In this document: in pieces, positions 12,254 to 24,814 of the stretch
Layout: the number at the start of each line of letters is the position of its first letter
Numbering within the stretch: the first letter of the stretch is position 1
Origin: Psammoneis japonica
Taxonomy: Eukaryota
Direction: 5' to 3'
DNA length: 64,000 nt
NCBI GenBank assembly: GCA_008632985.1
Contig: QPGO01000004.1
Span: 496,001-560,000, forward strand
Translations under genes and position numbers: made by a program
Notes under the pieces: model-generated
Database searches by the model: none
What the model saw: only the letters and a program-made list of their open reading frames with translations
Told to the model about the DNA's origin: nothing

Positions 12254-15200
12254 TTAGCTGTGCACTCGCGCCTTGGCGAGCTTGACAATCTTCTTCAACT
12301 CGCTTGTTGGTACAAGATAACATCTATGGCGGTCGGTCGGATCAGCTCGACTGAGGATTCCAATCACTCTGCCTTGTTCATTAAAACAAGGTCCTCCACT
12401 GTGACCACTTATGGTGGGGCAAATGACAACAATCTCTTCGCGAGGAGTAAACCAGCGGTTCGGAGCCAACTTGAGCGACTCTGAACTAGACAATGAAGTG
12501 GTATCTGGAATATCGTCGAGCGCCGCCTTGAACTTTTTGCAGACATAGCCTTTCGCAAGATCGACGCATCGGTTGACGTGCTTCCCCTTTTGTAGAATGC
12601 CTTCTCCACCCTGATTGAAGCCTACAATGCGCACCCTGTCTTCGAGTTCGCACTTGCGAGTCATCTTTAGATGCTGAAGGCTTTCGCCCTTAAAAGTCTC
12701 CGCGCCGTCGTGGAAAGGGATAATCTTTTCGTCGGCACAACCCTCGCCATCTCCGCCAACGTCGTTTTCAAACTTCGAGACAATGTTGAGCACGCAAGCG
12801 TCCATGTTGTGGACGTCGTGCGACACGATTTCGGCAAAATACCGAAACACGGCAGTCTCTTCACCCTTGGGAATGACGCCGACAACAGCCTTGGCATCTT
12901 TCAAACCCCAATACGGGCAACCGAAATCACCTTCTTCAGACATATCAAATAGTACATGAGCAGCCGTAACGACCAGGCCATGCTTAGAGTCGGCAACAAA
13001 GCCGGATCCAACATTGCGGATTTTCTTGCTTTCCGCATCCCAGAGACCAACCACAACAACTCCGCCAAGCAGACTAGATACCGGCGTTGAAACACAAGGA
13101 GGCATGCCATATTGATGGCGATGACTGGGCTGAGGAGCTCGACATGCACCGCACAACATGTTCGCATCTGCAAGGTGACCTCGAATGCACCGAATGTTGG
13201 GGTTGCCGCACTCTACCGCAGAGCGTACGCAATCCCAAGACCAGTTGGTCGCTTCCGTGTGGTGAGACTCCGCGAGACATTCTGGGCAAGCAATTTGCCT
13301 TTCTACATTGCCAGCCAAAAAGGACACCGAGGCCTTGATCGAATCGAGTACAAGGCCGTATCCGCCCTTCCACAACTTTCTTCCGTCGTGACCAGACTGT
13401 CCTTTGCCGGAAACGATGAGCTTCTTCACGCCACTTCCCATTGAGGTCGACGCAACGCAGTGGTGACTCTGTTGATCCGCGAGTGAAACAAATACTTCAA
13501 CGACGCTTTCTCGGATCTGACCACTCTCGGGATCTTCAAAGAAACATCCAATGTTGACAACCAATGAAGACTTCCAGCACATGATCTGATGGATCTTGAT
13601 TCGCCCTACAACTTGTGCCTCGTCTTCTTCTAATATCCTTGGCTCCAGATCTTGATCGAGAGGATACGACAAGGAACGATGGCACGCCTTTGGTCTTGAA
13701 TGGGTGCTGCTTTCAGAAAAGGCATACAAGTCTTCAAGCAGCGAGACGGTGATGCGCTCCATCATGTTCGGAGGTGCGCCATCGCGCAGCAGCCAAGAGT
13801 GACAAAGCGTTGTCATCCAACTTTGGCTTGACCTGTATGTCCACACATTGTGCGGTTCTGCCTGGGGAAGCATACCGGGAACAAGAAAGACCTCTTCGTT
13901 GCTGGATTCTCGTTCTGTTGGCATAGTCAACGGTACAAAGACACCGGAATGCACAAGCAAACGCTTGAGGAAACCAAACACATTCTCTGGAGACGTCGTT
14001 GACGAAACGTTAGCACTCTTATCAGCGGCTTCGCGCATAAAGTTCATAGATTGCCAAAGCATGGACGCATCACTGGAGCTCAGCACAGGGCAGTTGGAGT
14101 TGCTGCCGCCCAGCAAGGTGCGAGTGACATCTCCTTCCGTGTAGTGCTGACCACTGTATTCACATTGCATATTCATAAAGTTCCTCGTCTCAATAAGTTC
14201 ATTCTTCAAGTCATCGCACAGGATGCAGGAGAGCGCCGAGACGAGCCACTTTCGGCACAGCACAATGTAGTTGGTCAACAAGTCATTCTCGTCGTCGTTT
14301 CCAAAGTACAAGACTTCGCCAACGGTGGAAAGGAAGCGTAGGGACTCCAGAATCTCAGCGGTGGAACAGGTGACTCCTTCAGCCACCAAGTGATCCACAA
14401 GCACAACCTTGTGGTTGTCCTTTCGCAAACTACGAACAGCTTCCAAAACCTCTACTGTTCCTTTCGGAACCGGGGCACCAACGTGTCCAAAGACTTCCTG
14501 ATCGCGACCAGAGGTTGCAACATCAAGAATGGCGTTCTTGAGTTGATCCACACCTTCCTTCATATCGACACGAAGGACAGCAGAGTCATTCGCCAGCCTG
14601 GGAGGGTTACGGAGCGCTTGAATGTGCTCCATCAAGATGGCTTGCATCATGCTGCAACGACGTTGAGCTTCAAACTCGTCCATACCCTCAGGTAGAGTAG
14701 CCACAGGCAGAATCACAGCGTCACTTGTTGTGGCAGCAATTTGATCAACCCAGCAAAGGACACGGTCGTGAATGTCCACCTCGAGCGCACCGTCGGCTTG
14801 ACGATTGAGTCTCTCAAGAAGAAAATCATCGGCAACTTCATCCTCGTCTTCAGATTCGTCTTCTGGGATGCGTCGGTACGCAAGCGGGTTGCCACCCGCC
14901 ATATCCCACACCAGTACATACAGTGAATTCTCGGAAAAGAAGATGGACTGGGTGGCTGGATGCATACCGGCAGTCGCCTTGTCGTTCACGTCCCATACAC
15001 TGATTCGAACTTGCTTTTTGAAAGATGCACCATCGTCTCGATGCTCGACCGTCTTAGTTGTAAAGGCGTTGACGTCAACACCCAAAAGTGTGGATCGTCG
15101 TCTCTTTCTGCTGACACTCCCCTTACGGAGTGCTCGTGCCAACGTCGACTTGCCTGTATGGGGAGCTCCAACCATGACAACCTTGAGAGTATCATTGTAC

Positions 15201-16330
15201 ACGTCCTCGTCGGACGAAGAAGCCTTGCTAAGAGGAGCATGCTGAGGACCCTCGACCGGGTCCGACGCAATGGTTGCCACGCTCGATTCAAGGTCCGTCG
15301 AATATTCTTCATCTTCTTCTTGCAACTGTACAGCACCGGTCGTTAGATAGCTGTCAATCTTGTCAACCTTTTCGGGTGGTCCCCAAGTCAACTCGTCCAC
15401 CTTGTCATCTAATTCAATGTATGCATCAGCAGAAGTGCAAGCCGGCAATAGACCAGCCTCGAGCAATTGATCAGCGTTTCCAATGAGATGAGCCTCAGCA
15501 GTGGGTGGTGATGAGGGAGTGTATTCGTGGGCCAACGCCACCTCTTGTACAATTTGTTCTTGGTGCTGTTGTTGATGTTGATGCTGCTGTTGTTGTTGTA
15601 TCGCGGATATTTCTTCTTCTCCGCTCGTATTGATACGTCTTCTGCGCTTCTTTTTGTTTTTCTTGTTTTTTCGTTTTGCTGGAGCAGGTGTATCATATGT
15701 GAATTCTTCTTCTCCGTTCCGTGGAGAGGCTTTTCTCGACGTTCTCTTTCGAATCCATCTGCCAAATCGCTTCAGTTGTCTCGTTTTGCACGCTTTCTTC
15801 GCCAGCAACATGGCTTCAACTTCTTCTGGAGTCGGTGGAAGCGACGACGGTACCGCCACCAAATCACCGTCAATCAGCACAAAGTCGGCATCGTCAAACT
15901 CCGCGTCTCCATAACTGTCTGAAACTACTGAACGAAGCGTCGGAGCGTTGCTGTCGAGGGCAGCCGGGACTGCTGGCTCACTTCTTATACTCGTGACTGG
16001 AACAGCGGCGCTTGCAACGTTGTTGCTGCCGTCGGCTTGAATGGTTTCACCGGTAGGATATATATGTCCTACACTGGATCGCACCAGATTCGAAACAAAC
16101 GTGGCAACGGGATATGTGTATCCCTGTGAAACTTGACGTGCGGGAACGTCCGCGGAGGGAGCCTCATCGTTTTCTCCTTCATCTGATTCATTCAATACAA
16201 TCGCTGGAGCGACTGGTGGTTCTGTGGATGGTGGATAACTCCATTCTCTTAATAGCGTTGGTGTCTCTATTGTTGTTGCAACGTCGGTAGACTCCGGAGC
16301 TGCAGCAGCGGCAACACTCGTCATGGTCAA
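12254..16330 (-). CDS. Roco-like protein: disordered N-terminus - ROC GTPase-like - COR - Cys/His cluster - trypsin-like serine protease
   Basis: ROC: KVVMVGAPHTGKST, ISVWD, ATQSIFFSENSLYVLVWD. COR: LRFLSTVGEVLYF, IVLCRKWL, FLVPGMLP. Cys/His cluster: CPEC...CIRGH...CGAC. Protease: GSGF, VTAAHV, DACVL, ISGHSGGP. Confidence 0.85.
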   Translation of the reverse strand: MTMTSVAAAAAPESTDVATTIETPTLLREWSYPPSTEPPVAPAIVLNESDEGENDEAPSADVPARQVSQGYTYPVATFVSNLVRSSVGHIYPTGETIQADGSNNVASAAVPVTSIRSEPAVPAALDSNAPTLRSVVSDSYGDAEFDDADFVLIDGDLVAVPSSLPPTPEEVEAMLLAKKACKTRQLKRFGRWIRKRTSRKASPRNGEEEFTYDTPAPAKRKNKKNKKKRRRRINTSGEEEISAIQQQQQHQHQQQHQEQIVQEVALAHEYTPSSPPTAEAHLIGNADQLLEAGLLPACTSADAYIELDDKVDELTWGPPEKVDKIDSYLTTGAVQLQEEDEEYSTDLESSVATIASDPVEGPQHAPLSKASSSDEDVYNDTLKVVMVGAPHTGKSTLARALRKGSVSRKRRRSTLLGVDVNAFTTKTVEHRDDGASFKKQVRISVWDVNDKATAGMHPATQSIFFSENSLYVLVWDMAGGNPLAYRRIPEDESEDEDEVADDFLLERLNRQADGALEVDIHDRVLCWVDQIAATTSDAVILPVATLPEGMDEFEAQRRCSMMQAILMEHIQALRNPPRLANDSAVLRVDMKEGVDQLKNAILDVATSGRDQEVFGHVGAPVPKGTVEVLEAVRSLRKDNHKVVLVDHLVAEGVTCSTAEILESLRFLSTVGEVLYFGNDDENDLLTNYIVLCRKWLVSALSCILCDDLKNELIETRNFMNMQCEYSGQHYTEGDVTRTLLGGSNSNCPVLSSSDASMLWQSMNFMREAADKSANVSSTTSPENVFGFLKRLLVHSGVFVPLTMPTERESSNEEVFLVPGMLPQAEPHNVWTYRSSQSWMTTLCHSWLLRDGAPPNMMERITVSLLEDLYAFSESSTHSRPKACHRSLSYPLDQDLEPRILEEDEAQVVGRIKIHQIMCWKSSLVVNIGCFFEDPESGQIRESVVEVFVSLADQQSHHCVASTSMGSGVKKLIVSGKGQSGHDGRKLWKGGYGLVLDSIKASVSFLAGNVERQIACPECLAESHHTEATNWSWDCVRSAVECGNPNIRCIRGHLADANMLCGACRAPQPSHRHQYGMPPCVSTPVSSLLGGVVVVGLWDAESKKIRNVGSGFVADSKHGLVVTAAHVLFDMSEEGDFGCPYWGLKDAKAVVGVIPKGEETAVFRYFAEIVSHDVHNMDACVLNIVSKFENDVGGDGEGCADEKIIPFHDGAETFKGESLQHLKMTRKCELEDRVRIVGFNQGGEGILQKGKHVNRCVDLAKGYVCKKFKAALDDIPDTTSLSSSESLKLAPNRWFTPREEIVVICPTISGHSGGPCFNEQGRVIGILSRADPTDRHRCYLVPTSELKKIVKLAKARVHS

Positions 16331-16987
16331 TTCTTGTTCTGGGCCTTTTTTCTGCCTTGTTTCGGTGTTTTAGAAAAATATATTCGATAAATAATGCACA
16401 GCGACGAAGTACGTTGTTTTCTACGTGGCTCTCGTATGTTCGGTTCTCACGTCGCTGAATTGACGCGTGTTGTGACTTCTTCTCTGTTCCGAAATCGTAT
16501 GTTAACCTTATCCGTACACGTAGAATATAGTCTCTTTGTACACAACGTCCTACATCAGTTTCATACTAATTCCTCCGTACACAAGCCAGCATGGAGAAAC
16601 ACGATTGAAAGTTACGGCGCGGACGAAGGAAGGGCGTTCCAGAATGCCTTTCTTTCTCTCCGCGAAGAAACAATTAACATCATATATTTACTCATTGTGG
16701 GATATGCGCATTTATGACAAGGCAATACGAATAAATGTTTCAAGACTGGTATCCATTTCTGTAGGATGGACGTAAACAGAGCGAGTCATTACTGCTTGAT
16801 GTATCAGGACGAGAATATAATCAATTTTCGAAACTCGTGACTGCAAAGAACCAGCTCGCTCGCTCGAACACACTCGAACTCATTCCCTGCAGTCTGTCAT
16901 CGCCGGTCAGATGAGAAATGAGAAACGAGAAACTGCTCACAAAATAAATCGTTTCTTGCTCACATTTTTCTTTTTGTCGCCGCCCCT

Positions 16988-19757
16988 TCATTCCAAATAG
17001 ACCACCAACACGCTCACATTATCCGTCGTACCCTTTTCGAGCGCTGAGCTGCAAAGCGCTTTGGCCGCATCACCGGGACTCATTCCGTTTCGTCTCTTGG
17101 AAATCACCTCCTTGCCAACCAATTCGTTGTCCATGACTTCAAACAATCCATCCGTCGCAAGGATCAAGCAACAATCAGACCTGTCCGCCAACAATTGTGA
17201 AAGTGGAACCTCGTCAACATCTGGGTCACTCACAATGCCCTTACTTGTTGCAAACGAGCCTTCCAACGATCGGCTCACGGCGTATTGATAATCCCCCACA
17301 GATAACCAATATTTGGATAGCGAGCATTGAGGCAACGAGTAACCCAGTCCCTCACTCCTGCCCTTTTCCAATCTTTGTGCCTCTGCATCACTGGAAGGAG
17401 AATGATCCGTTGTGGACCAACAACACACGCTCTTGCTGTCGCTTGATTTGCCCACTACGAGGGTTCGTGAATCACCGCAATTGAGAACAGACATGGTTTC
17501 GACAAACTCATGTGACGGTATTGTCAAGACGGATGCAGTGGTTCCCGCCGCAATGGTATCGGATCCAGTATTTGCCTTTAATGTGCCTTCTCGGGAATCG
17601 TATTCGGCAATACAAATGTCGGATTCCTTATCACAGCCGTCTCGATAGGCGTCGCAAGTTGTGGTCCAAGCGCCTTGAAGAGAATCAAGGCTACCGTCCG
17701 CAATAAGCGTGGGCATGACTTTGGACGCCATTTCTGATGCTGCTGTACCGGCGTGTCCGTCAAAGACACCCGCTACTAAAATGGGACGGTCTTTGTCATT
17801 TGCATTTTGTACTTCATGGAGGACTGTCGTTGTTGAGAGAACGCAAAGGATTGAGCAACAAGGAGAGCCAGATTTCGGTAACAAATCTCTCACTCAACAT
17901 CCTCTGTACTCACCAAAATTGTCTTCTTGCGTTTTCCGTCGACCCTTTGTGGACCAAGCACCTTGTTGCAAGACTCGTACTAAGTGAGGTGCTGCAGCAG
18001 TCGCTGGAGGTTTTGTGGATGGCTGTCGATCAAACTGGACCTTGACCGTCTTTGCTCTCGGTGGTTGTTGTTCCAACATACTCACCACCTTTTCAAACCC
18101 TCCTTGTGCCAGTGGCAACTCTCCAACGCCTTCGAGACGATCCCCAATTTCAAAAATATCCATTTGATCTGCCTGACCGTACTGAACGATTTCCTTGACA
18201 AAGACCTCTCCCTCCCTTGCATTCTTGGTTGCTTCTCGCCATTTGGCCAAGTCTTGTGGGTCCATATCATCCACATCCTCGTCGTCGGGTTCGGATAAAA
18301 CTAATCCCAGCGAGAGCTTTCTTTCAAAGGTGGCTACAAAATGCAACGGTCGAGCTGAAGGTGTAGTCTCAGCTTCTACAAACAAGGGAACATCGCACGT
18401 CTCCATAGCTGCAACAACGGATTCAAAGAAGGAACCGTCCACACTATCAACCTCCGTTTCTTGCTGCAGTACTTGCTCCAACACCTTTCTTGCCTTGCTC
18501 GATGAACATCGCCGTTCTGGATCAACGTGCAGCATGTTACGCAACAAGTTCCAAAGTCCCCGTCGCTCGCCCAAATACAAGAGAGCATCGTCCAACCCAT
18601 CGGGGCGGACTTTGGATGATAACTCACGGGACAGCCACGTGTCCAAATCATAATTCGCATCAATCAATTGTTGATGAAAGCCAGCGTCGGTGCGTTCGTC
18701 CAAGTAATTAAAGAGCAACTGACAAAAGACCAACCCCACAGAGTACACGTCAAAGTTGAGTGGTTCACTGTCGAGTATGATTCACGTTTGACGGTAGGCA
18801 GATCAAAGATAAGTAACAAGATGCTCTAACCAACAAGATGTGCGCAGGTGCCTACCTTTTTGGTTTGATGAAAACTTCAGGCGCCGAGTAAACGGGAGAG
18901 AGCGCTACCCTGTTTTCGTTTTCAATCCCTACAAAACGCTCGCCTCCAAACAGATTCTTCGATATGGGCTCCATGTCGGCCGCCGATCCAAAATCAAACA
19001 ACACGAGCCCTTGGTCGGCAGTTAGCAGGTTGGATGGTTTGAAATCTCGATGAACAATGGAAAGCGAGTGCGTAAAAACTAGGCAGTCAAGCATGGATTT
19101 CAGTAGCGTGTCCAAGGTTCGTCCCAATCCATCTTCGTCCTCTGCTGGTGGTAATCCCATTTCCTTTTCAATCATGTACAAGTGGTGATGGTTCTCTGAC
19201 GGATCGTGCTGATCGGTCCAGTCAAGTTTCATGACTTGATCCAACGTCAGAGCCGGTGATTCACTGCTTCTTTGTTTGATAACTTCAAATAGCATCCAAG
19301 AATGTTGATCAGAATCCTCCATGGTCCCTCTGTAAATTGGAACAAGCTCGGACGGCTCTTTAGCCATTTTCTCAAAACAATGTTTTTCCACGTCAAAGTA
19401 GTATTTGCACCGTTCTGCACGTTCCTTGGGATCAGAAGTGTGCTTTTGAATCACTTCATCGTTTTCATCCCAAGCTCGCTTGCAAATTAATGTCTCTCCA
19501 TCTACAGAACACAAATGCACCGTTCCATAACTCCCAGAACCAACTTCTTGACCAATTTCCAGTGTTGTGGTCGCGCTCGATGCCGCAGTCGCTTGGAGAA
19601 GAGTGTTTTGACAATGTCTCGATGGTTTAAGAAGTGCTGCTCTTTTCACGGAGAATGTGGTAGCCGTATATATCGACAAGGCAACAATCAACAGTCGCGA
19701 CACGTTCGTTGCGGTGCCAAGAACCGTCATGGTGGGATGAAGTTGCAACAAACGCAC
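16988..19757 (-). CDS. Spliced STN7/STN8-like Ser/Thr kinase - PDZ-like - PP2C phosphatase fusion with putative plastid presequence (~860 aa)
   Basis: Exons 19757(or 19730)-18856, 18767-17914 and 17823-16988, with frame-preserving GT-AG introns of 88 and 90 bp. Kinase motifs GSGSYG, ICK, HRDFKPSN, DFG, APE, DVYSVG. PP2C motifs GRRKTQED, FDGHAG, GTT, NCGDSR, DH, VSRSL, ATDGLF, GTTDNVS. Confidence 0.88.
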
Positions 19758-19912
19758 GACGACGCGATCTTTCCACTTCGACTTGTAGTCTGTCGAATCA
19801 TACGTGAAGTATGTTTTAGTTATCCACCCACGTATACAGACATAAATTTATCAAAAAAGATTTTGCGCTCGTTATTCGTTATTCTTCACGAAGAATCGAA
19901 AGGGATGATACA

Positions 19913-21159
19913 ATGAAGGAGTTGCTTTTGTTACTGTTGCTTCTCGTTGCCAATCATGGCGCTCATCCCTTTTGTACCACGTCGGTAGACTGTGCCATGA
20001 ATGGCGAGTGCGTGACTGCTGGGAAACGTGGCAAGAAGAAGTGCCGTTGTTTTCAAGGATGGAAGGGCAGAAACTGCGAAGAGCTCGATTTGTTGCCTGT
20101 CAAGGACGAACAAATGGGATTGAAGTTGCCAAATCGAACTTCTACGTGGGGCGGAGCCATTACCCATCATAACGGTACATGGCACATGTTTGCTTCCCAG
20201 CTGGTAAGCAAGTGCGGTCTGGAGTGTTGGACTAGCAACAGTCAGGTAGTTCGAGCCACTTCCAAACATTACCTGGGTCCCTACTCCATTCAAGATATAA
20301 TTCTTGAACCATTTGCCCACGAGCCAAGTATCCTGATAGCACCCACTGGAGAAATCGTCTTGTTGGTATTAGCCCAAGAGGGAGTCGAACCGAGAGATTG
20401 TACAGACAACCCTCCACCACTGCATAGTCCGCCATTGACTCGACCAACTCCGAGGAACACTTACATGATGTGGTCAAACCAACCAGAAGGCCCGTGGTCC
20501 GATCCAGTTTTAGTTTTCAACAGTACAATATGGAACTCAGATTATTGGTCGAGGTACAACGTAACCACCGAATGCGATTCTAATTTGAATGGAATCATTT
20601 TGCCCAACGGAACTTTGCTAGGTTTATGGAGACGTTGTGAAACACCAGACCTTCATACGATTCCTCATGTAATCGTGGCTAGCAACTGGAAAGATCCATC
20701 CACCTATCAACCGCGGACGGATCCAATCTTTGTACTGGGTGGGGCAGGCACAGAAGATCCTAGCAATATCTGGACAACAACGACCAAAGACATGGGTACA
20801 GCGTATCACGCGCTGTTTCATGACGAGCAATACACTCGGTGTATGGAACCCACCGGTTGTTCCGCCAACGGTCGACATGCCTTTTCCCTAAATGGTATCT
20901 CTTGGCGATATTCATCTGTGGATGCCTATGGGCAGACGTCAACTTTACAACCGCAACGGGCAAAAGCTACGTTCGACATGTGACTGGAGCGCGGGCTAGA
21001 CCTCATGTTGTTTTGAACGACAGAAACGAACCAGTCGCATTATCTACCGGCTTTCAACAACACCAGGAGTCAGGATATGTCTGGACATGTGTGCAAGAGT
21101 TGCGACAAAAGAAGGGTCTAGAAAATGACCAAGGGCTGCAACTAGAGAAACGTGGTTGA
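19913..21159 (+). CDS. Secreted EGF-like + beta-propeller glycoside hydrolase (GH43-like); one apparent frameshift near 20930
   Basis: Signal peptide; CxxxxDCxxNGxC...CxCxxGWxGxxC; STWGGAI, WHMFAS, GPYS, FAHEPSI, GPWS, EDP. The C-terminus (RARPHVV...LSTG) is in the next frame (ORF 20839-21159). Confidence 0.65.
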
Positions 21160-21297: not shown

Positions 21298-24200
21298 TCA
21301 CGGCAACGAATGCTGCCGGAAGAAACTCATTGTAGTTTCATTGTAATAAGGGTAATTCAACGGTACCTGATGGTCATTCTGCCCGGTACCGTAGTTGCTG
21401 TGAAGAACAAAAATGTTGGGCTCCTCGCAATCCACGTCGGTAAATGTGCCGAGTGTCCTGATAGTGTCCTTGTACGCTGAACCGGTCGCTCGCTGGCATC
21501 CGTTTATGCGAAACCACCAGTCACTTACATCACCAGTACCAGAGACACGCGAGTCGTACTGTCCTTTCATTGTTATCATCGGCACCGCCCGTTCACAGTC
21601 TTCGGGGACGATTGGCGGGTACAAGTTGTAATACCCTGGATAACCATCGAAAAAATGAGGGCTGTTGGACGCAACAGAAACGGACGCAGCAATTTTGTCC
21701 CCACGAGAACAGGAGAGAGCGCTTGTCATGTCGCCACCCCAGCTTTGTCCTGTGACAAAAACATGCTTAAGATTGATGCACAGGTCGTCCGACACATCAT
21801 CAAGGATATCGTCGAAGAAAATGAAGTCATCGTTGTCGTTCCTTTGCCCAGTCACCCAGCCTTCGACGGCATTCGAGCCCGTCCATCCCCACATTGGCCA
21901 ATCCCGACGCAGAGCATAGGGGTATACAAAAATGGCATTGTCTGCATAAGAAGTCTCTTCCAGCTCTAAATAACCTCTCATCCAGTCTCCCCTCCATCCA
22001 ATGCCATGATATCCAATCACCAGATCATAACTCTTGAACCGGTCGTAACTGGTAGGAACAGACAGATGGTAAGTCCGCGACACACCGCCCGATACAATAA
22101 CAGTGTCCCGCTGTCCTTCCGCCACAATTTTGCCGCACCCCGGTGAACTTGTACTTGGGCTTGAAGGACTTCTCGTAGGCGGCAAAGTAGGTTGAAGGTT
22201 AGGCTGTGGCAGTGGAGTGGGCGACGGCGACGGTACATTTCCCGTCGATCCGTTCAATTCGATGGAGACGTTGTCGACATACAAATCATTCCATTCATAT
22301 CCGCTACAAACGAAGCGAAGCCGAAAGTTACTTGTGAAGTACTGCGAGGGAATAGGCACAGAAAAGAGTTGCTCGGATTCACCAATCGCGCTCAGTCGAT
22401 CATAGTTTTGCCCATCTGAAGATACCTGCACTTCAGCTACTCCAGAGCTTGACAGAGAAGCTCTAGAGTCAAACGAAACAGAAGCCGAAATGGCACCTGC
22501 CAGGTTGGCTCCTCGATCCGACCACACCACCTGAAACCAACTCTTGCTCCCGAGTAAACGCAAACAGTCGCCCTCTTTACACCAGCCTGACATTGACTGA
22601 ACATATACTCCAACACTCGAATCACCAGTCCAACTGCCGGACCAGTCCAGGGATCCAATATTACCGTTGAATCCGGAGTCAAAGTTATCCGCGTAGTCAT
22701 TCGCCTGCGACAAACGAGGAGTGGGCGCAAGCGTCGGTGGATTCGTGGGGTCAGCTGTTGGCTGTGTCGCCGCAGACGAGGGTGCTGGTGTGGAGGTAGG
22801 TGGGGGTGGAGTGGGCGACGTAGTCGGTACATTTCCCGTCGAGCCGTTCAATTCGATGGAGACGTTGTCGACGTATAAATCATTCCAATCATATCCGCTG
22901 CAAACGAAGCGAAGCCGAAAGTTACTCGTGAAGTACTGCGAGGGAATAAGCAGAGAAAAGAGTTGCTCGGATTCACCAATTGTGCTCAGTTGATCATAGT
23001 TTTGCCCATCTGAAGATACCTGCACTTCAGCTACTCCAGAGCTTGACAGAGAAGCTCTAGAGTCAAACGAAACAGAAGCCGAAATGGCACTGGCCAGGTT
23101 GGCACCTCTATCCGACCACACCGCCTGAAACCAACTCTTGCTCCCGAGTAAACGCAAACAGTCGCCCTCTTTACACCAGCCTGACATTGACTGAACATAT
23201 ACTCCAACACTCGAATCACCAGTCCAACTGCCGGACCAGTGAAGGGATCCGATATTACCGTTGAATCCGGAGTCAAAGTTATCCGCGTAGTCATTCGCCT
23301 GCGACAAACGAGGAGTGGGCGCAAGCGTCGGTGGATTCGTGGGATCAGTTGTTGGCTGTGGCGTCGCAAACGAGGGTGCTGCTGTGGAGGTAGGAGTGGG
23401 TTCAACTCCGCTGCTTGTAACATCAATCCTAACGTCGTCAATGTACAAGTCATTCCAGTCATATCCTTGGACCATGAAGCGAAGCCGAAAGCCTGACGTG
23501 TAGAATTGAGATGGGATAATGAAGGTGCGGTATCCCTCGAGATTCGATCCTATATCCTCTAGATTCTCACCAATCTGCGACCAAGTTCCCGGTGCTCCAT
23601 CGCTTCCACTGACGTAAACCGAACCATGTCCATCCTCAAAGAAAGCTTGAAAATGAAATGATAGCGAAGCTTGAGTAGCTCCTTCCAAACTTGCACCACG
23701 GTCACTAAGCGCCGTCTCGTAGGAATTGTCTGAAACAATTAATCGGAGACAGTTTGCCGCCAAGCACCAACCCTGCATCGACTCAATTCGCACTCCCGGA
23801 CCTTGAGACCACGCATCTGCCCACATGTAGCTTCCGTCATTTCCTGTTTCGCCGGTACTGCCTTGACTCGAAGTGTCAAAATCATCTGCAAATGTTCCAT
23901 CAAGCATTGTTAACTTAGGCTGAATATCCTTTATTTCAACATTGTCCACAAAGAGACTTGTCCCCTCTGTAGCTCGGAAACGCACAGCAAACTCGGACGT
24001 CAAATAGGCTGATTCGATGTCAACAGATATTAGTCCGCTAGTGCCAACAGCAAGGGTAGCAACCTTGACCCATCCCAATGAACTCTTGAAGTGAACCTTG
24101 GCAGAACTTCCGGAACCAACCAGATGGTAGTCGAACGTGAGCTTGATGCTGCTGGACGAGGAGAAGCTGCTCAGGTCAGCTTTGCGCTTGGTAGTAGAGG

Positions 24201-24468
24201 AAGTCCTTTCGACATCATTTGGCGAAATCTTGAGGCAATGCGATCCACTACTGCAATAGATGCTATCATTGACGAAAAAAATCCCATTGCTGTTGCTGCC
24301 TGACCACCTTGAACTCCAAGATTCCGAGCCATCATGCCCGTGTGCACCGCTGTGGCCCCCGTTGATTGCGTCAAAGTCATCGGCGAACAACGGTGTAGCC
24401 AAAGCGGAGTGGCCTATTGCTACAACTAGCAGCAAGACTGCCAGACACATCATGCCATTCCTTCTCAT
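21298..24468 (-). CDS. Secreted protein with four jelly-roll/MAM-like beta-sandwich repeats, P/T linkers and a C-terminal alpha/beta-hydrolase (PHB-depolymerase / CE1 esterase-like)
   Basis: Signal peptide; repeats D(D/N)FD...CxxxxCL...F.LRF...LY.D(N/D)V; catalytic region RTYHLSVP, LVIGYHG, DDFIFFDDI, VFVTGQSWGG (GxSxG), G.YD, DHQ. Confidence 0.8.
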   Translation of the reverse strand: MRRNGMMCLAVLLLVVAIGHSALATPLFADDFDAINGGHSGAHGHDGSESWSSRWSGSNSNGIFFVNDSIYCSSGSHCLKISPNDVERTSSTTKRKADLSSFSSSSSIKLTFDYHLVGSGSSAKVHFKSSLGWVKVATLAVGTSGLISVDIESAYLTSEFAVRFRATEGTSLFVDNVEIKDIQPKLTMLDGTFADDFDTSSQGSTGETGNDGSYMWADAWSQGPGVRIESMQGWCLAANCLRLIVSDNSYETALSDRGASLEGATQASLSFHFQAFFEDGHGSVYVSGSDGAPGTWSQIGENLEDIGSNLEGYRTFIIPSQFYTSGFRLRFMVQGYDWNDLYIDDVRIDVTSSGVEPTPTSTAAPSFATPQPTTDPTNPPTLAPTPRLSQANDYADNFDSGFNGNIGSLHWSGSWTGDSSVGVYVQSMSGWCKEGDCLRLLGSKSWFQAVWSDRGANLASAISASVSFDSRASLSSSGVAEVQVSSDGQNYDQLSTIGESEQLFSLLIPSQYFTSNFRLRFVCSGYDWNDLYVDNVSIELNGSTGNVPTTSPTPPPPTSTPAPSSAATQPTADPTNPPTLAPTPRLSQANDYADNFDSGFNGNIGSLDWSGSWTGDSSVGVYVQSMSGWCKEGDCLRLLGSKSWFQVVWSDRGANLAGAISASVSFDSRASLSSSGVAEVQVSSDGQNYDRLSAIGESEQLFSVPIPSQYFTSNFRLRFVCSGYEWNDLYVDNVSIELNGSTGNVPSPSPTPLPQPNLQPTLPPTRSPSSPSTSSPGCGKIVAEGQRDTVIVSGGVSRTYHLSVPTSYDRFKSYDLVIGYHGIGWRGDWMRGYLELEETSYADNAIFVYPYALRRDWPMWGWTGSNAVEGWVTGQRNDNDDFIFFDDILDDVSDDLCINLKHVFVTGQSWGGDMTSALSCSRGDKIAASVSVASNSPHFFDGYPGYYNLYPPIVPEDCERAVPMITMKGQYDSRVSGTGDVSDWWFRINGCQRATGSAYKDTIRTLGTFTDVDCEEPNIFVLHSNYGTGQNDHQVPLNYPYYNETTMSFFRQHSLP
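22231..23380. repeat. Near-identical 594-bp intragenic tandem duplication (198 aa)
   Basis: cggtacatttcccgtcga occurs at 22231 and 22825, and the two units align with few substitutions. Confidence 0.92.
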
Positions 24469-24814
24469 CCTCTTCTATTGTCAGCTTGCCGTGGATACAC
24501 TCACATTTTTCTTTTTTTCTTTTTTGGTTTGGAACCTCACTGGCGTTTTCTCGGTCACATGCCCGATGGACAATGCCAGTGATAAAGATTCTTGAGATGC
24601 CCAAGACCCGATTATAACATCTACTGTTAAAATGAGACCAGCGCACCAGCCAAGCACAACAAGCCATTCTGGTTTGACTGCCATTCCAAGCATTCGAATG
24701 GAGATTGAAGGTCCATTCTCTCTCTCCATTGAGCCATTGCAACTGTGACCCATTCAACATTCTGTGCAATTGGAAACTCACTCTCCACAACTCACAACAA
24801 GAGTCTGTGGACTC

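Follow-up and report, generated by a model that had tools for sequence, protein, structure and literature searches.

Can a single protein carry both a plastid kinase and the phosphatase that opposes it? Plants and green algae control thylakoid phosphorylation with the STN7/STN8 kinases and with separate PP2C phosphatases. A gene of Psammoneis japonica raises the question of whether this division of labor is general. The gene lies on the minus strand of a 64,000-nt stretch of DNA (contig QPGO01000004.1, positions 496,001 to 560,000 of the forward strand, assembly GCA_008632985.1), which we call the window and whose first letter is position 1 in all coordinates below. In one polypeptide, behind a presequence of the plastid type, it combines a kinase of the Stt7 type with a PDZ-like domain and a PP2C phosphatase, and both enzyme domains are intact. 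We read it as a nuclear gene whose product is a soluble, bifunctional Ser/Thr kinase-phosphatase targeted to the plastid, with a probability of about 0.55; plastid location and a role as both writer and eraser of phosphorylation are what we infer from this makeup.

Three exons encode one kinase-PDZ-PP2C polypeptide

The gene model consists of the following parts.

16988-19730, minus strand: kinase-PDZ-PP2C gene; three adjacent open reading frames (ORFs), by direct reading of the sequence
18856..19730, minus strand: exon 1; aa 1-291 and two bases of codon 292; presequence and kinase N-lobe to just beyond APE
18768..18855, minus strand: intron 1; 88 nt, GT..AG, phase 2
17914..18767, minus strand: exon 2; aa 292-577 including the shared codons; end of the kinase C-lobe, helical linker, PDZ-like domain and PP2C motif 1
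17824..17913, minus strand: intron 2; 90 nt, GTGAGT..CAG, phase 1; splits PP2C motif 1 from the remaining phosphatase
16991..17823, minus strand: exon 3; rest of the PP2C
16988..16990, minus strand: stop codon TGA

The first ATG of the exon 1 ORF is at 19730-19728 on the minus strand, and with both introns removed, the coding sequence of 2565 nt translates into 854 aa without an internal stop. Unspliced, the first ORF terminates as ..SAPEVFIKPKR-stop, with the stop being part of the GTAGG that follows AAAAAG, and the second terminates as ..TQEDNFGEYRGC-stop, at an in-frame TGA six codons into intron 2 (GTGAGT). The spliced protein instead reads ..VFIKPK-S-EPLNFDVY.. across junction 1 and ..TQEDNF-V-LHEVQNAN.. 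across junction 2. The original prediction had proposed that three ORFs splice in frame through introns at 18855-18768 and 17913-17824, that the second intron interrupts PP2C motif 1, and that kinase and phosphatase therefore share one polypeptide. Both sets of intron coordinates proved exact, but the position given for the end of the gene, 19757, is 27 nt further upstream than the ATG. The motif is divided as described, with GRRKTQED at the end of exon 2 and the Pfam PP2C match in exon 3 beginning at profile position 26, so the phosphatase is whole only in the spliced protein. No second copy of the gene was found by tblastn in the 64-kb window.

The open spliced frame is matched by its relatives. 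Full-length relatives, some of them transcript-derived, are collinear to the residue over both junctions, which supports the joining of kinase and PP2C in one polypeptide. When the translations of exons 1-3 were compared by BLAST with the stored relatives, they aligned in order on single proteins such as P0005, where three residues (259-261) separate the blocks at junction 1 and a single residue separates those at junction 2, as the splice model predicts. Among 140 family proteins, 77 continue through 'ED.F[VIL]LHE', and then DGH.G, into a whole PP2C, while 18 end a few residues past 'QED.F' with a read-through that begins with G; the remaining 45 are otherwise truncated or lack the motif pattern that we used. 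The G-starting read-through of the 18 is what a phase-1 GT intron left unspliced at this codon would give. A further 11 family fragments end no more than 45 residues past APE, four of them (P0132, P0133, P0141 and P0146) exactly 7 residues past it, which is the position of intron 1. Because these ends match the intron 1 and intron 2 sites, both intron positions are old. Many database entries that hold only kinase and PDZ appear to be unspliced gene calls.

The proteins that end at the place of intron 2 include P0004 and P0010-P0013. For P0004, an MMETSP transcript is listed as a source, and this may be an intron-retaining transcript or pre-mRNA. Retention of intron 2 would yield a kinase-PDZ protein without the phosphatase; such retention may be regulated, or may reflect unspliced RNA or an error in gene calling.

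Both catalytic sites are conserved across fused relatives

The domains of the spliced protein are as follows.

19551..19730, minus strand: predicted bipartite plastid-type presequence; aa 1-60; signal peptide LLIVALSIYTAT
18467..19562, minus strand: Ser/Thr protein kinase domain; about aa 57-392, interrupted by intron 1; motifs GSGSYGTV, K84, E115, HRDFKPSN, DFGSAAD, SAPE and R378
18026..18352, minus strand: PDZ-like domain; about aa 431-539
16991..17965, minus strand: PP2C phosphatase domain; about aa 559-854, interrupted by intron 2; motifs RRKTQED, DGHAG, GDSR, TDG and DN

Exon 1 alone matches Pfam Pkinase (PF00069) at E 7e-14 (52.3 bits, cut-off 31.7), and exon 2 carries the Pkinase tail; this profile match above the cut-off, together with K, E, HRD..N and DFG, places the domain among the eukaryotic protein kinases. 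Its DFG-to-APE segment is long, at 34 residues, and rich in possible phosphosites. Exon 3 matches Pfam PP2C at E 3.6e-26 (92.8 bits, cut-off 20.3) from the profile position given above. The score above the cut-off, the metal-binding Asp residues, the RxxxED, DGH, DG and DN motifs and the PP2C fold assign the domain to the PP2C/PPM family (PF00481).

To assess conservation, we aligned the spliced model from the window with 82 fused relatives (83 sequences in all; MAFFT). In the kinase, HRD, DFG and APE are present in 83 of 83 sequences, K84 in 74/74 and E115 in 78/78; in the PP2C, R569, E573, D574, D598, G599, H600 and D694 are present in 83/83, D801 in 81/82 and D844 in 81/81. HRD..N of the kinase and GDSR and D844-N845 of the PP2C are also invariant or almost so. 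Both catalytic sets had been described as intact from this one sequence, and the tested positions are invariant or nearly so across the 83 fused sequences, a pattern that points to purifying selection on both active sites. Nine cysteine columns are at least 85% conserved in the same alignment (C108, C118, C416, C633, C640, C647, C692, C743 and C834). C108 and C118 flank the alpha-C glutamate of the kinase, C416 lies in the linker and is present in 83/83, and six are in the PP2C region, where C633, C640 and C647 are spaced 7 residues apart in an insert. More speculatively, these cysteines could hint at redox or metal control.

For the middle domain, all 12 of the PDB sequence matches to exon 2 residues 180-255 are PDZ domains, at weak E values of 0.018-1.3, and 18 of 28 relatives have a Pfam PDZ match at E <= 0.1, the best of them at 1.6e-4, in line with the PDZ-like assignment made at the outset. 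P0242 (PF00595) and the Emiliania huxleyi relative carry precomputed PDZ families.

The known plastid phosphatases of plants offer a comparison for the PP2C domain. TAP38/PPH1 and PBCP, which are stromal and oppose STN7/STN8, have the same PP2C fold, the full metal-binding set and, presumably, the same task of reversing a plastid kinase, but they are separate polypeptides, whereas the PP2C in the window is fused to its kinase. Specific kinship to TAP38 was considered and rejected: the domain is a generic PP2C, at least as close to PPM1K and ABI1 as it is to TAP38. No PBCP entry was found among the PP2C comparison matches listed.

The fused architecture recurs in diatoms

We searched longer proteins with the exon-2 translation and obtained 126 matches, most of them with both PF00069 and PF00481; the best identity among them was 58%, so the window's own protein is not included. 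The named close relatives are all from diatoms (Seminavis robusta, Fistulifera solaris, Mayamaea pseudoterrestris, Conticribra weissflogii, Thalassiosira sp., Amphora coffeiformis, Cylindrotheca fusiformis and a Pseudo-nitzschia JGI model), and fused proteins were found in S. robusta, F. solaris, M. pseudoterrestris and Thalassiosira sp. Four fused relatives (P0028, P0035, P0040 and P0056) are labelled as complete MMETSP transcript ORFs, and one Thalassiosira assembly holds at least two fused paralogs (P0106 and P0255). The kinase-PDZ-PP2C order is also found in a non-diatom relative, P0242, of 764 aa.

More distant relatives (P0200, P0209, P0225, P0232 and P0253) have the same kinase followed by PDZ and end without PP2C motif 1; P0253 is an E. 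huxleyi protein named 'PDZ domain-containing'. The kinase-PDZ pair may be the older unit, to which the PP2C was added later, or the distant gene models may be truncated. From these comparisons, the family appears to be conserved among diatoms and to have relatives in one or more haptophytes. Its names in public databases are automatic only: 'linked kinase-associated serine/threonine phosphatase 2C', 'cGMP-dependent protein kinase' and 'hypothetical protein'.

The N-terminus resembles a diatom plastid presequence

Diatom plastid presequences carry an ASAFAP-type motif, in which an aromatic residue at +1 is required for entry into the stroma. The N-terminus of the spliced protein, MTVLGTATNVSRLLIVALSIYTATT|FSVKRAALLKPSRH.., has a hydrophobic core, then small residues, then F. 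Cleavage is predicted at YTATT|FSV, with the codon for F26 at 19655-19653, and the stretch past F26 to the kinase G-loop is basic, rich in Ser/Thr and almost without acidic residues. The pattern of a signal peptide followed by a TT-FSV presequence, as first proposed, is therefore present with F at the predicted +1, and we predict that the N-terminus is a plastid presequence of the ASAFAP type.

The same arrangement is common in the family. A hydrophobic h-region followed by small-x-small|F/W was found in 64 of 104 family N-termini (62%) compared with 260 of 2080 shuffles (12.5%), making it five times commoner in the real sequences by this pattern, which is home-made and not a trained predictor. 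The 104 N-termini are those that start with M, 35-200 residues before the G-loop. Examples in relatives include ..TAAF, ..VSSF, ..VASF and ..CAW, and the pattern recurs in distant diatoms whose presequences are otherwise unalike.

The signal peptide is the only strongly hydrophobic segment of the protein, with a Kyte-Doolittle 19-residue maximum of 1.53 at residues 10-28; the next-highest windows fall within folded domains. Kyte-Doolittle analysis of the 854-aa protein showed no transmembrane (TM) helix after the presequence, and hence the protein has no lumenal segment. The predicted cleavage site lies only about 36 residues ahead of the G-loop, too few to accommodate a lumenal Cys pair. The predicted protein likewise has no second hydrophobic domain that would suggest a lumenal address.

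The kinase resembles Stt7 in modeled structure

We modeled the kinase with AlphaFold2 on a relative, P0004 (616 aa, with a continuous kinase and PDZ), from a 28-sequence alignment. P0004 is 44% identical to the window protein over exon 1 and 58% over exon 2; its model has a pLDDT of 74.5, and values exceed 90 over most of the kinase domain. In a Foldseek search with this model, 4ix3_B and 4ix3_A, from the Micromonas Stt7 homolog, ranked first and second by a thin margin. For the same model, the Z score of 4ix3 exceeded those of all other solved kinases by 6 to 7.6 units, and its aligned residues outnumbered theirs by 15 to 40. Such a gap in Z and such additional aligned residues are what specific Stt7 kinship would look like, and in the model the kinase is clearly closer to the Stt7 type than to other kinase families.

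The resemblance is to the fold of the kinase. The original prediction had called the kinase STN7/STN8/Stt7-like, and the structural comparison agrees, whereas one of the motifs cited for it does not stand, the protein lacks the TM helix of that group, and sequence searches gave no support. The motif, YDLDTW, was rejected as an STN signature, since it aligns equally well with the ordinary subdomain X of MELK ('YDVPKW') and is thus not STN-specific. A search with exon 1 against 1.84 billion representative proteins gave 777 matches at E <= 0.001; beyond the family these are generic, often bacterial-type, kinases. In the ESM Atlas, exon 1 retrieved generic kinase clusters only and exon 2 nothing above 0.77. 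A search with P0242 returned RSK/MSK and bacterial TPR kinases after the family and none named STN7/STN8, a weak negative in that only the 7999 most word-sharing candidates were scored.

STN7 and Stt7 have a pair of lumenal cysteines. Stt7/STN7 and their kin (Stl1/STN8; 4ix3) carry a TM helix and a lumenal segment before the kinase, and the window protein has neither; we accordingly rejected it as an STN7/Stt7 ortholog in architecture. Stt7/STN7 are, moreover, separate kinases of the green lineage, whereas the present family belongs to diatoms and a haptophyte and is fused to PDZ and PP2C. Excerpts of a preprint on STT7 (bioRxiv 10.1101/2023.08.08.552398) report its TM helix and a DLG motif, in place of which the window family has DFG.

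A proposed plastid kinase-phosphatase and its alternatives

Once in the stroma, a kinase that is either soluble or bound peripherally would phosphorylate plastid proteins, either thylakoid-associated or stromal, and the tethered PP2C would strip the same or neighboring phosphates. The PDZ-like domain could recruit a shared partner or substrate, or could set which of the two activities wins. Since it has no membrane anchor of the Stt7 type, the protein would be unable to read the plastoquinone pool through cytochrome b6f as Stt7 does; as a speculation, control might pass through the conserved cysteines, responding to stromal redox, rather than through a b6f-linked anchor.

Several observations weigh against this reading. 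The Stt7 match comes from an AlphaFold model of a relative and not of the window protein, and the structures on which AlphaFold was trained include 4ix3. In sequence, 4ix3 is not among the best 60 of 653 PDB matches in a phmmer search with exon 1 (the first are CDK1, Aurora, DAPK and CaMK), nor among the best 60 of 1806 with a 28-sequence kinase-PDZ profile (first MAPKs and CDK2), nor among the best 60 of 875 with a 15-sequence profile of the C-lobe tail (first MELK and MAPKs). A DLGAA-type motif occurs in none of the best 150 matches of the phmmer search with exon 1 against the 1.84 billion representative proteins. Exon 2 of the window has no Pfam PDZ match of its own at E <= 1, so 'PDZ-like' is the apt name for its domain. 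The splice junctions are drawn from comparison with relatives, and targeting was judged by the home-made pattern. Finally, diatoms are said to have neither STT7/STN7 homologs nor state transitions, in excerpts of a Phaeodactylum paper (PMC10089185). The structural match to 4ix3, if it carries over from the model, would qualify the first part of that statement.

The protein could instead be a stromal signaling enzyme unrelated to light harvesting, whose Stt7-like fold reflects common ancestry and which regulates metabolic enzymes or plastid gene expression. The lack of a membrane anchor would suit such an enzyme, as would the reported absence of state transitions in diatoms (PMC10089185, in excerpt) and the phosphoproteins reported from diatom plastids, which are largely stromal enzymes in the portions consulted of PMC7408324. 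The nearest solved structural relative, as judged from the model, is nevertheless a homolog of a thylakoid state-transition kinase, and peripheral membrane binding through the PDZ-like domain is possible; we regard this alternative as conceivable but on balance unlikely.

Less probable still is a self-resetting kinase, in which the PP2C works chiefly in cis, on phosphosites of the kinase itself, the fusion serves as a timer or noise filter, and the PDZ-like domain only docks the target. The order of kinase and PP2C is constant, the linker keeps conserved residues such as C416 (83/83), and the 34-residue DFG-to-APE segment offers many possible phosphosites; the kinase domain of STT7 itself carries multiple phosphorylations, according to excerpts of the same preprint (bioRxiv 10.1101/2023.08.08.552398). 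The conservation data, however, suit this model and that of a kinase-phosphatase acting on plastid proteins equally.

The reading as a plastid kinase-phosphatase can be extended into an evolutionary scenario, which we offer as a long shot. Algae with red-derived complex plastids would have kept an Stt7-type kinase and rebuilt it as a soluble, self-contained switch, in which stromal redox cysteines and PDZ docking replaced the b6f/plastoquinone sensor (TM helix and lumenal cysteines), the opposing PP2C was welded on, and retention of intron 2 offered a route to a kinase-only isoform, together controlling phosphorylation of the FCP antenna or the photosystems. Least probable of all is a destination outside the stroma, in which the signal peptide directs the protein into the ER/secretory path or to the periplastidial compartment, and an F follows the cleavage site by coincidence: only 64 of the 104 N-termini fit the home-made pattern, but this is 62% against 12.5% in shuffles, the pattern recurs in distant diatoms with unalike presequences, and the residues that follow F are largely basic and hydroxylated and hardly ever acidic.

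A plastid kinase-phosphatase has parallels in other systems. The bacterial proteins AceK and HPrK/P likewise hold opposing activities on one target in one protein, a design that can make the phosphorylated fraction insensitive to the amount of enzyme. They have unrelated folds and carry out both reactions at one active site, whereas the window protein has two separate catalytic domains. Oomycete and plant proteins that join PP2C, cyclic-nucleotide-binding and kinase-like domains are described in excerpts of PMC3019232. These too combine kinase and PP2C in one polypeptide but, in the parts consulted, have cyclic-nucleotide-binding domains, an inactive kinase, no PDZ and another domain order, and are not described as plastid proteins; the window protein runs kinase-PDZ-PP2C, and both of its enzymes look active.

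A full-text literature search, which covered main texts, found no published description of the kinase-PDZ-PP2C architecture in diatoms. The main text of PMC5462543 does not mention the family, and its supplementary set of 770 conserved ochrophyte plastid proteins may include it. In Phaeodactylum, chloroplast enzymes are phosphorylated on a diel cycle, and the kinases are not named in the excerpts of PMC7408324 consulted. The family is a conserved, real and uncharacterized variant built from known parts. A plastid-addressed Stt7-like kinase with its own phosphatase would be a candidate regulator in diatom plastid phosphorylation and a direct genetic handle on this gap, and a natural two-domain fusion of kinase and phosphatase is of wider interest as a way to control phosphorylation level robustly.

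Neighboring genes in the window

Directly downstream of the kinase gene, a 1371-aa ORF (12257-16369, minus strand) matches a Roc GTPase (E 7e-8) and, at its C-terminus, a trypsin-like peptidase (E 7.8e-14), with a weak COR-A match below the cut-off (E 3.7e-4). The fusion of a ROCO-type GTPase to a serine protease is an unusual pairing.

On the other side, a divergent neighbor (19820-20980, plus strand) starts about 180 bp from the ATG of the kinase gene, and one short bidirectional promoter region may serve both genes. The translation of this neighbor opens like a signal peptide (MKELLLLLLLLVANHG) and has an EGF-like match at E 1.2e-6, together with a weak one to glycosyl hydrolase family 43 that falls below the cut-off. 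Beyond it lies a 1058-aa ORF (21301-24474, minus strand) that matches no Pfam family at E <= 0.001; it contains a long internal duplication, with two near-identical blocks starting ..PTLAPTPRLSQANDYADNFDSGFNGNIGSL.., and linkers rich in proline and threonine.

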